Assembly: GCA_015064855.1 (NCBI GenBank)
Contig: SVRK01000002.1
Location: 117,256 to 181,255 of the forward strand
Origin: Oscillospiraceae bacterium
GTDB taxonomy: Bacteria; Bacillota; Clostridia; Oscillospirales; CAG-272
Length of the DNA: 64,000 bases
Reading direction: 5' to 3'
Shown: in pieces, positions 51,870 through 52,361 of the stretch
Layout: each line of letters begins with the position of its first letter
Numbering within the stretch: the stretch's first letter is position 1
The notes under the pieces: model-generated
What the model was told of the DNA's origin: nothing
The model's input: the letters and a program-made list of their open reading frames with translations, nothing else
The model's database searches: none
Translations under genes and position numbers: made by a program

Positions 51870-51898
51870 TTGACAAATCTCTAATTCAATGATATAAT
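51870..51898 (+). promoter_or_regulatory. Sigma-A promoter driving riboswitch 1
   Basis: TTGACA-17 nt-TATAAT directly upstream of the aptamer. Confidence 0.8.
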
Positions 51899-51901
51899 GA
51901 T

Positions 51902-52040
51902 TACATCCATAAAGAGTGTGCGAGGGAGCAAGCCTTATGACCACACAGCAACCTACCAATAGGCAAGGTGCTAATGCTTGAACGATGGGTGTAAATGATT
52001 TGATAATTATGCACCTGTCTAACGATGGGTGCATTTTTGT
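51902..52040 (+). ncRNA. SAM-I/IV-variant-like riboswitch 1 with terminator
   Basis: AAGAG-P2-GAGGGA...AGCAACC...AAGGTGCTAA core; P1 tacatccat/atgggtgta; pseudoknot caagc/gcttg; terminator atgcacc...ggtgcattttt. Confidence 0.8.
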
Positions 52041-52082
52041 TTTTCTGCGCTCTTTATGGAAAAACCATAAGGAGCGTTTTTA

Positions 52083-52361
52083 ATGTCTAAAACACTAACA
52101 GAATTAGTGCATAGCACAAACAAAAGAGTTTATGTACATTTATCCGATATAGAAACAATACGGATGTTTATTAACAATGCAGAAAAAGAGGGATTCTCAT
52201 TTTTAGAAAACAAACGTATTTCGGATATGCCGTTAGATAATTTCTACGCACTCAACAAAAATTTGACCGTGAATTATATCAATTTCATAGGTCGTGTGGC
52301 GTATCAATGCGGCGCAGAGAATATTTTGCGAATTGATTATAAAAAATTTCTCTTGCAGTGA
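52083..52361 (+). CDS. Hypothetical protein under riboswitch 1
   Basis: RBS AAGGAG; 92 aa; no recognisable family. Confidence 0.7.
   Translation: MSKTLTELVHSTNKRVYVHLSDIETIRMFINNAEKEGFSFLENKRISDMPLDNFYALNKNLTVNYINFIGRVAYQCGAENILRIDYKKFLLQ

Follow-up and report, generated by a model that had tools for sequence, protein, structure and literature searches.

Positions 51865-52425 of the window, by which we mean the whole 64,000-nucleotide stretch of DNA analysed here, form what we hold with good confidence to be a self-contained, portable cassette, made up of a strong promoter, a SAM-I riboswitch that lacks the P4 helix, the gene for a 92-residue protein, and a 3' hairpin. This grade applies to the best explanation as a whole, including the regulatory mechanism and the role proposed for the protein. 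Within it, the reading of the unit as a SAM-OFF riboswitch cassette, whose protein would be made only when SAM is low, is firmly supported by sequence comparisons. The protein represents a family, matched by no model in the collections searched, that appears to be almost obligatorily coupled to this type of riboswitch. Features of the cassette and of its surroundings are collected in Table 1.

Table 1. Coordinates of the cassette, of its regulatory elements, and of related features in the window.
Feature	Position	Strand	Description
Tn7-like element with both riboswitch copies as cargo	43099..57735	.	Transposition genes and terminal repeats
Sigma-70-type promoter	51870..51898	+	TTGACA, 17 nt, TG-extended TATAAT; 12/12 match
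P4-less SAM-I aptamer (copy 1)	51904..51991	+	RF00162, 56.6 bits
Predicted antiterminator	51984..52019	+	P1 3' strand GAUGGGUG (51984-51991) with terminator 5' arm CACCUGUC (52012-52019); -13.8 to -14.0 kcal/mol
Intrinsic terminator	52009..52044	+	11-bp stem 52009-52034 followed by U-tract; -15.9 kcal/mol
Putative anti-SD box GCGCUCUUUAUGG	52047..52059	+	Alternative partners: SD arm (52065-52077) or aptamer 5' strand/J1-2
3' arm of sequestering hairpin	52065..52077	+	Contains SD AAGGAG (52069-52074), 8 nt before ATG
92-residue ORF, member of an unmodelled alpha/beta family	52083..52361	+	SD AAGGAG upstream; AlphaFold pLDDT 96.1
3' tail of cassette	52362..52425	+	Conserved, two hairpins, probably its own terminator
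Diverged P4-less SAM-I riboswitch (copy 2)	54480..54682	+	Aptamer 54480-54568 (47.3 bits), terminator 54579-54614

A portable cassette in a Tn7-like element

The original prediction, made from the sequence of the window alone, described a riboswitch in transposon cargo behind a perfect promoter, and both parts of that description are borne out. A consensus scan placed TTGACA at 51870-51875 and, across a 17-nt spacer, the -10 hexamer of a TGnTATAAT element at 51893-51898; with its TG extension and with all twelve hexamer positions matching, this is the top-ranked site in a 5-kb scan. Transcription is expected to start at about 51904-51906, the opening bases of P1, and the promoter is kept in the homologous cassettes L001, L008, and L017. 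The surrounding element encodes TnsB-like (Mu-transpos_C), TniB, and TniQ/TnsD proteins at 43814-48352, and it is bounded by identical terminal repeats of 213 nt (43099-43311 and 57523-57735). It thus shows the transposase, ATPase, targeting protein, and defined ends around a cargo that are found in Tn7-like elements; no TnsA was recognised by Pfam in it. Further cargo includes a serine recombinase, a DnaJ-domain protein, HTH regulators, a YpsA/SLOG protein, and an HNH protein. A Clostridia MAG from the human gut contains a near-identical element. In the host genome (2.02 Mb, 96% complete) there are just three SAM-I riboswitches, namely the two copies in the element and one upstream of metK.

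In comparisons with copies that lie next to pnuC in other genomes, homology sets in close to the -35 box and breaks off some 65 nt past the stop codon, at approximately 52425. These limits imply a mobile unit of about 560 bp. Copies of it turn up in unrelated surroundings, where homology stops just outside the unit, and its settings include Tn7-like cargo, WXG100/T7SS-like arrays, and phage modules near the terminase; in four genomes its neighbours are housekeeping genes. It resembles phage morons as a stand-alone unit of promoter, gene, and 3' hairpin found in unrelated contexts (Tn7-like cargo, phage, chromosome), but it has, unlike them, a metabolite riboswitch in control of its expression.

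Aptamer class

A search of the whole window with Rfam models, a check that had been proposed together with the original prediction, returned a covariance-model match above the gathering score for RF00162, the SAM-I family (56.6 bits against 44.4, E = 2e-10), in which the model positions for P4 are deleted. P1 pairs 51904-51910 with 51985-51991, J1/2 reads AAAGAG, P2 carries the K-turn GA motifs, P3 is present, and the pseudoknot joins CAAG (51929-51932) to CUUG (51976-51979). A single G-C pair is all that remains of P4, the helix of the four-way junction that is usual, though not universal, in the family, and the metK leader of the host likewise lacks this helix. Homologous leaders upstream of other members of the protein family score 47-63 bits against RF00162.

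With a DNA pattern derived from the aptamer's 3' portion, at least 120 metagenome loci and 16 viral loci were retrieved. Among the matches listed, 99 unique leaders have the SAM-I core, and 80 P4-less aptamers of these were aligned. Standard pairs fill 95.2% of the pair cells in these 80 leaders drawn from the matches listed, and 17 of the 30 pairs change on both sides. Compensatory cells number 178, compared to 55.9 +/- 6.1 in shuffled alignments, a value reached by none of 500 shuffles, while slid controls pair at 28-40%. Individual pairs of P2 show between 9 and 33 double changes, and pairing reaches 95% in P3 and 88% in P1. Of the two variable pairs in the pseudoknot, column pair 32-93 is AU in 62 leaders and GC in 18, column pair 33-92 is GC in 69, CG in nine, and AU in two, and both covary. 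Across the 80 leaders, conservation is complete or at least 90% at the positions that contact SAM (P1 A-U/U-A, J1/2 AGAG, GCAACC, GGUGC) and in the K-turn GA motifs, and in a sequence-level test the SAM-contact nucleotides fall on upper-case consensus positions of the RF00162 model. On the evidence of this alignment, both purifying and compensatory selection act on the aptamer, which is a genuine member of SAM-I. We conclude that it is SAM-I proper, with SAM as its predicted ligand; nothing in the comparisons points to SAM-I/IV or to another ligand.

The original label of a SAM-I/IV-like riboswitch stands so far as it named a real SAM riboswitch with SAM-I core motifs, while the class itself changes to P4-less SAM-I. 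SAM-I/IV riboswitches (RF01725) likewise lack an internal P4 and have a binding core similar to that of SAM-I, but in clan competition RF00162 is kept, the K-turn GA motifs are conserved here, and the sequence 3' of P1 is an antiterminator/terminator system in place of the P4/PK-2 module. It had also been observed that the top of P1 reads AUA, an A.G pair where C-G would be canonical. This is so, and it holds for almost all of the 80 aligned leaders, those of genuine metK genes included. AUA is therefore the norm of the subclass and no peculiarity of copy 1.

A predicted transcriptional OFF switch

The 3' strand of P1 (51984-51991) recurs as the repeat GATGGGTG in the 3' arm of the terminator (52024-52031), and the duplication extends to an 11-mer, AACGATGGGTG, found at 51981-51991 and again at 52021-52031. 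Because of this repeat, the P1 3' strand can pair with the 5' arm of the terminator as an antiterminator, an alternative pairing that the original prediction had proposed and that we confirm at -13.8 kcal/mol. By the same duplication P1 and the antiterminator are mutually exclusive, and the antiterminator and the terminator exclude each other in turn. Judged from these pairings, the platform is of the classical S-box OFF design, and the competition of P1, antiterminator, and terminator supports the earlier suggestion that binding of ligand turns the switch off. At high SAM, P1 would be locked by its ligand, the terminator would form, and transcription would end at about 52044. At low SAM, the antiterminator would be built from the 3' strand of P1, and RNA polymerase would read through.

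The SAM-I/S-box riboswitches of Bacillus subtilis yitJ, metI, and metK and of Thermoanaerobacter tengcongensis metF share with this leader P1, a K-turn P2, P3, a pseudoknot between the P2 loop and J3-4, and the SAM contacts, as well as the OFF logic in which P1, an antiterminator, and an intrinsic terminator compete. The leader differs from them in the deletion of P4, a natural variant already known, in its target, which is a small protein of mobile DNA rather than a gene of sulfur, methionine, or SAM metabolism, and in a separate SD-sequestering hairpin that follows the terminator.

A putative translational tier

This second hairpin, which the original prediction had missed, lies between the terminator and the start codon, spans 52047-52077 with 13 bp and -19.6 kcal/mol, and buries the SD. 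In its 5' arm the segment CUCUUUAUGG (52050-52059) is the exact complement of the 5' end of the aptamer, CCAUAAAGAG (51907-51916), which comprises the 5' strand of P1 and J1/2. The duplex of the two has a predicted energy of -17.1 kcal/mol.

Platform statistics were computed for 59 independent leaders with a clear start codon, among the matches listed. The SD is paired in 53 of these, the duplex of 5' strand and box reaches -8 kcal/mol or lower in 45, and in 44 the same box nucleotides serve in both pairings, usually at similar energies. Boxes pair with the 5' strand of their own leader at a mean of -10.15 kcal/mol, compared to -7.92 kcal/mol for swapped partners (z = -9.5, with 0 of 5000 permutations reaching the observed value). 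Changes in the 5' strand are matched by changes in the box, as in CCAUAAAGAG with CUCUUUGUGG, CCUAUAAAGAG with CUCUUUAUAGG, CCUAUGAAGAG with CUCUUCAUA, CCUAUUUGGAG with CUCCAAUAGG, and UUUGGAG with CUCCAA. The independent covariation events behind these comparisons are modest in number, perhaps five to eight sequence types, and about ten of the 59 leaders have no convincing box. One genomic copy, L160, has no terminator, and aptamer, box, and SD occur alone, within 44 nt. The leaders of metK carry the same box, which is therefore a property of the riboswitch lineage and not of the 92-residue gene.

An anti-SD strand with two alternative partners, the SD and an aptamer strand, is thus apparent from these leaders, with both pairings covarying. 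At moderate confidence, we consider it likely that a thiM-like translational tier is added to the transcriptional switch. At high SAM the 5' strand would be held in P1, and the ribosome-binding site of any leaky read-through mRNA would stay buried. At low SAM the freed 5' strand (51905-51916) would capture the anti-SD box (52048-52059), the SD would open, and the protein would be made. The thiM TPP riboswitch of Escherichia coli is apparently alike, in that its anti-SD strand has two possible partners, the SD and a strand from the P1 region of the aptamer, of which the ligand withdraws the latter. Ligand and aptamer differ, and in the present leader the tier is stacked behind a complete terminator/antiterminator system. 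No description of a SAM-I platform with two such tiers, terminator and translational, was found in the literature searched.

Two alternative readings of the leader bear on its ligand and on this second hairpin. We regard it as very improbable that the aptamer has drifted to another ligand, be it SAH, a SAM analogue, or none, and the variant ligand that the original prediction had entertained is not upheld. Such drift would fit the deleted P4 and the non-canonical A.G closing pair of P1, and the affinity of SAM-I aptamers is reported to be lower as P4 shortens (PMC12714719). Yet conservation and covariation extend over the SAM contacts, the K-turn GA motifs, and the pseudoknot, and bona fide metK genes are under the control of this P4-less AUA subclass, among them the metK of the host, whose leader holds the sole other SAM riboswitch of that genome. 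Natural P4-less SAM-I aptamers are moreover known and reported to respond to SAM, and the missing helix is compatible with membership in RF00162 because such members are documented and are reported to function (PMC12714719). The other reading, to which we give somewhat more weight while still thinking it unlikely, accepts the transcriptional SAM-OFF switch as real and takes the post-terminator hairpin to be a constitutive damper of translation or a stabiliser of the mRNA. The complementarity of the box would then be non-switching, and could follow from the AAGAG-like sequence that the SD arm shares with J1/2, or from a 5'-terminal helix that shields the read-through mRNA from RNase J. By nearest-neighbour energies the full-length fold with the long-range helix (-52.2 kcal/mol) is 5.4 kcal/mol worse than the fold with the SD buried (-57.6 kcal/mol), in which the free 5' strand pairs with the 3' arm of the terminator, and some leaders have no box. 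Since the SD hairpin is more stable than the duplex that would open it, the translational tier would need co-transcriptional capture or help from the ribosome. What speaks against a passive hairpin is that the difference between own and swapped partners lies in the variable P1 part rather than in the shared AAGAG, that both pairings run through the same box nucleotides, with balanced energies, in 44 of the 59 leaders, and that L160 has the box and SD as its sole platform.

A second copy of the riboswitch

Copy 2 differs from copy 1 by compensatory changes in the aptamer, with a pseudoknot of CAGC and GCUG. Its terminator is followed by a box/start-codon hairpin and then by just an 11-codon ORF (54647-54682). 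It has no -35 element of its own and begins 20 nt past the stop of the ORF at 54163-54459; a perfect promoter lies farther upstream, at 53894-53922. No remnant of the 92-residue family was found downstream of it, and an Rfam search at an E-value threshold over 54600-55100 gave chance matches only. Copy 2 may be a relic, or it may be an intra-operon, SAM-dependent attenuator of transcripts from the promoter at 53894-53922.

The protein family

The 92-residue protein has no match in Pfam-A, PHROGs, NCBIfam, PADLOC, or the sequences of the PDB; a Pfam FPL match at E = 0.0045 fell short of the cut-off and was taken as chance. It shows no similarity to known enzymes of methionine or SAM metabolism, in agreement with the original view that the ORF is not such a gene. 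Its close homologues number 27, and a wider family becomes visible in a profile search of 1.84 billion representative proteins, which found 199 clusters at E <= 1e-3 (clusters at 50% identity, roughly 200). Most members are 90-130 residues long and share the motifs AE.EGF.F, DG.KPT, NYVG..G..AF, and RIDY.KY. One candidate member, P0166, was rejected as a false positive caused by a Listeria-Bacteroides repeat.

With a deep alignment, AlphaFold gave a confident alpha/beta model (pLDDT 96.1, pTM 0.86). A run on 26 close homologues reached a pLDDT of 62, and the fold matches obtained from it (ferredoxin-like, L7/L12 CTD) were discarded. The confident model has no significant match among PDB folds (best E = 2.4, TM < 0.35), and bears a weak resemblance, with a TM of about 0.55, to uncharacterised phage proteins in BFVD. 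Comparison by hhalign with the L130/L112/L131 family, itself riboswitch-gated, gave a probability of 47% and E = 2e-4, limited to the first beta-alpha unit. Some members are fusions: P0045 and P0085 carry MORN_2 repeats, and in P0136 two copies of the family domain are joined to a domain resembling the riboswitch-gated L087-type family. MORN_2 proteins with a C-terminal L130-type domain also occur downstream of the P4-less SAM-I riboswitch. MORN_2 repeats are known as the YwqK-type immunity fold. None of 112 family members matches PADLOC.

Coupling of gene and riboswitch

The tie between this protein family and the riboswitch adds to the original prediction, and it can be followed from either side. 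Starting from the riboswitch, a family member stands behind 22 of the 99 unique leaders fetched with the DNA pattern, the largest single class among the matches listed. In that same set of listed matches, about ten leaders precede metK-type genes, a mixed cluster of nine includes genes resembling N-formylglutamate amidohydrolase (2q7s, E = 6e-7), three precede MORN_2 proteins, and a long tail precedes small uncharacterised proteins. Starting from the gene, the family profile was applied to 399 genomes of the class and found it in six genomes from six genera, and in all six an RF00162 riboswitch lies directly upstream on the same strand. The riboswitch is likewise upstream of members P0025, P0019, and P0005, of the remote members P0188, P0195, and P0192, and of the gene in the sequenced Ruminococcus phage NatCom_28274 (PV036439.1, protein XTK83981.1). 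It is present, in total, in 13 of 13 distinct members that have enough upstream sequence. Many short-read contigs break within the leader, as is expected of a repeated element. A protein pattern built from the close homologues found nothing in viral and metagenome contigs, and plasmids gave no match. SAM riboswitches on phages or mobile elements were not found described in the literature searched. From these counts, the protein family appears almost obligatorily coupled to a P4-less SAM-I riboswitch.

Gene neighbourhoods and the role of the protein

Restriction and defence genes near the cassette include GmrSD (3), Mrr (2), DndB, NA-iREase1, and DNA methyltransferases. In one phage lineage the gene is divergent from that of a 260-residue MetK-N-domain protein, beyond which follow a ParB-N6/N4 methyltransferase, a PAPS-reductase-like gene, and a C5 methyltransferase. 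In Ruminococcus phage NatCom_28274 a DNA methyltransferase lies two genes from the family member. The association with MetK and methylases comes essentially from one phage lineage, and the neighbourhoods are heterogeneous overall. They give some circumstantial support to the link with restriction and methylation that the original prediction had raised.

The near-obligatory coupling to the riboswitch argues for a role specific to SAM shortage, and the patchy, mobile distribution together with the methylase and MetK neighbours would place that role in the SAM and methylation economy of mobile DNA rather than in core metabolism. Our best guess is that, in phages and mobile elements, the protein serves the SAM/DNA-methylation economy as a binding factor rather than an enzyme, perhaps as a reserve means of protecting DNA, or of adjusting the supply or use of SAM, once methylation runs short.

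Two other roles can be set beside this one, and each of them we think unlikely. The cassette could be a module of defence or counter-defence in which the riboswitch is a danger sensor and a collapse of SAM, through phage SAM lyases or methionine starvation, induces a small protein-binding effector such as a protein that inhibits restriction enzymes or one of immunity type. The restriction and methyltransferase genes listed above would be natural company for such a module, as would the WXG100/T7SS-like arrays at other loci; the domain is fused to MORN_2, MORN_2 proteins stand under the same riboswitch, and the gene is patchily distributed (6 of 399 genomes, in six genera). The absence of any PADLOC match among 112 members tells against it, as do the housekeeping neighbours in four genomes, the composition of the protein, which is not acidic as DNA mimics are, and the lack of a conserved toxin partner adjoining the gene. 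Alternatively the protein could be a plain factor of SAM and methionine homeostasis, for instance one that regulates or chaperones MetK or a salvage enzyme, carried on mobile DNA by chance. Strict coupling to a SAM riboswitch agrees with this, and so do the divergent short MetK-like gene in phage loci and the metK and N-formylglutamate-amidohydrolase-like genes driven by the same subclass. A gene absent from 98% of the genomes of the class is ill-suited, however, to a core metabolic task, and the family has neither a conserved metabolic neighbour nor similarity to any enzyme or known SAM-binding fold. We continue to prefer the binding factor in the methylation economy of mobile DNA.

A broader reading, put forward tentatively and as an improbable whole, is that the SAM riboswitches of mobile elements are sensors of SAM collapse, whether from methionine starvation or from the SAM-degrading enzymes of an enemy. 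They would induce small, fusion-linked, protein-binding domains that protect the DNA of the element or the host, and the 92-residue family, the L130-type and L087-type families, and the MORN_2 proteins would form one guild under them. If this were true, sensing of SAM collapse would be a metabolite-gated layer of defence or counter-defence.

Significance

Textbooks present SAM-I riboswitches as regulators of sulfur and methionine genes, and both the class and its P4-less form were known already. New, as far as sequence can tell, are the apparently obligate partnership, on portable cassettes, of the riboswitch with a protein family that is undescribed and confidently folded, the wide range of small uncharacterised genes that gut phages and mobile elements carry behind the subclass, and an anti-sequestor arrangement that covaries. 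In this leader, nature would have connected a terminator tier and a thiM-like tier to a single aptamer strand, which is of interest for the mechanism and the design of riboswitches. Dozens of other small uncharacterised genes on phages and mobile elements lie behind the subclass in metagenomes of gut and rumen. A riboswitch of this subclass upstream gives such orphan genes a defined inducing condition, low SAM, and so makes them directly testable. The cassette suggests that mobile DNA reads the methylation currency of the cell.

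Variants of the P4-less SAM-I leader

The leader of the host's own metK gene belongs to the same P4-less SAM-I subclass as the cassette leaders, and past its terminator it carries the box AUCUUGAUA, which is complementary to the P1 5' strand and J1/2 of the same leader. The leader of locus L160 has no terminator; its anti-SD box and SD lie directly 3' of the aptamer, 44 nt before the ATG. Judged from sequence, this form of the pairing between riboswitch and 92-aa gene is predicted to be under translational control only.

Coordinates of leaders, RNA candidates and a cargo gene
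Feature	Position	Strand	Remark
Host metK leader, P4-less SAM-I (L011)	G000:C15:35635-35720		72.8 bits
L160 leader	G185:C24, 1837-1925 and downstream	-	
SAM-I copy 2 and short ORF	window 54480-54682		
Promoter-like site, ORF-free stretch, hairpin and T-run	window 54784-55025		
Gut-1 RNA (RF01706) match	window 30997-31067	-	57.2 bits; cut-off 50
YpsA/SLOG-type "GTP-binding domain" protein (phrog_289)	window 50320-50763		near cassette, in Tn7-like cargo

Additional RNA elements

The second SAM-I copy in the window begins 20 nt after the stop codon of a 98-aa ORF, lacks a -35 element of its own, and is followed only by an 11-codon ORF (product MRTNKRIFKPP). It could be a relic. Alternatively, it could serve as a SAM-dependent terminator inside an operon, acting on transcripts from a perfect promoter that lies ahead of it at window 53894-53922.

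The ORF-free stretch listed in the table, about 200 nt long, follows a promoter-like site (TTTACA, 17 nt, TG-TATAAT) that matches at 11 of 12 positions, and is closed by a hairpin and T-run at about 54990-55022, shortly 5' of a 163-aa ORF at 55053. Comparison of this region with Rfam gave chance matches only; it may encode a small RNA or represent a further leader. Adjoining one cassette copy is pnuC, for an NMN transporter, with a perfect promoter of its own (L005, 400-560, for promoter and leader); its leader, structured and about 130 nt long, may be another riboswitch.

Gene neighborhoods

In Ruminococcus phage NatCom_28274, a protein annotated in the phage record as "GTP-binding domain" (L175, 4154-4486) also lies near a cassette. 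This parallel in annotation hints that the cargo block of the Tn7-like element derives from phage.

A phage-like module at three loci (L170, L171, L173) encodes a 260-aa protein in which SAM synthetase is represented by its N-terminal domain alone; adjoining it are a ParB-N6/N4 methyltransferase, a PAPS-reductase-like gene and a C5 methyltransferase. Short MetK-like genes of this sort are themselves preceded by the P4-less SAM riboswitch at L102 and L124. Genes resembling N-formylglutamate amidohydrolase, with an HxPHxS motif, recur behind the P4-less subclass at six loci (L022, L033, L071, L108, L110, L121), the L022 gene matching PDB 2q7s with E = 6e-7. Their pairing with a SAM riboswitch is an association outside the classical S-box regulon.
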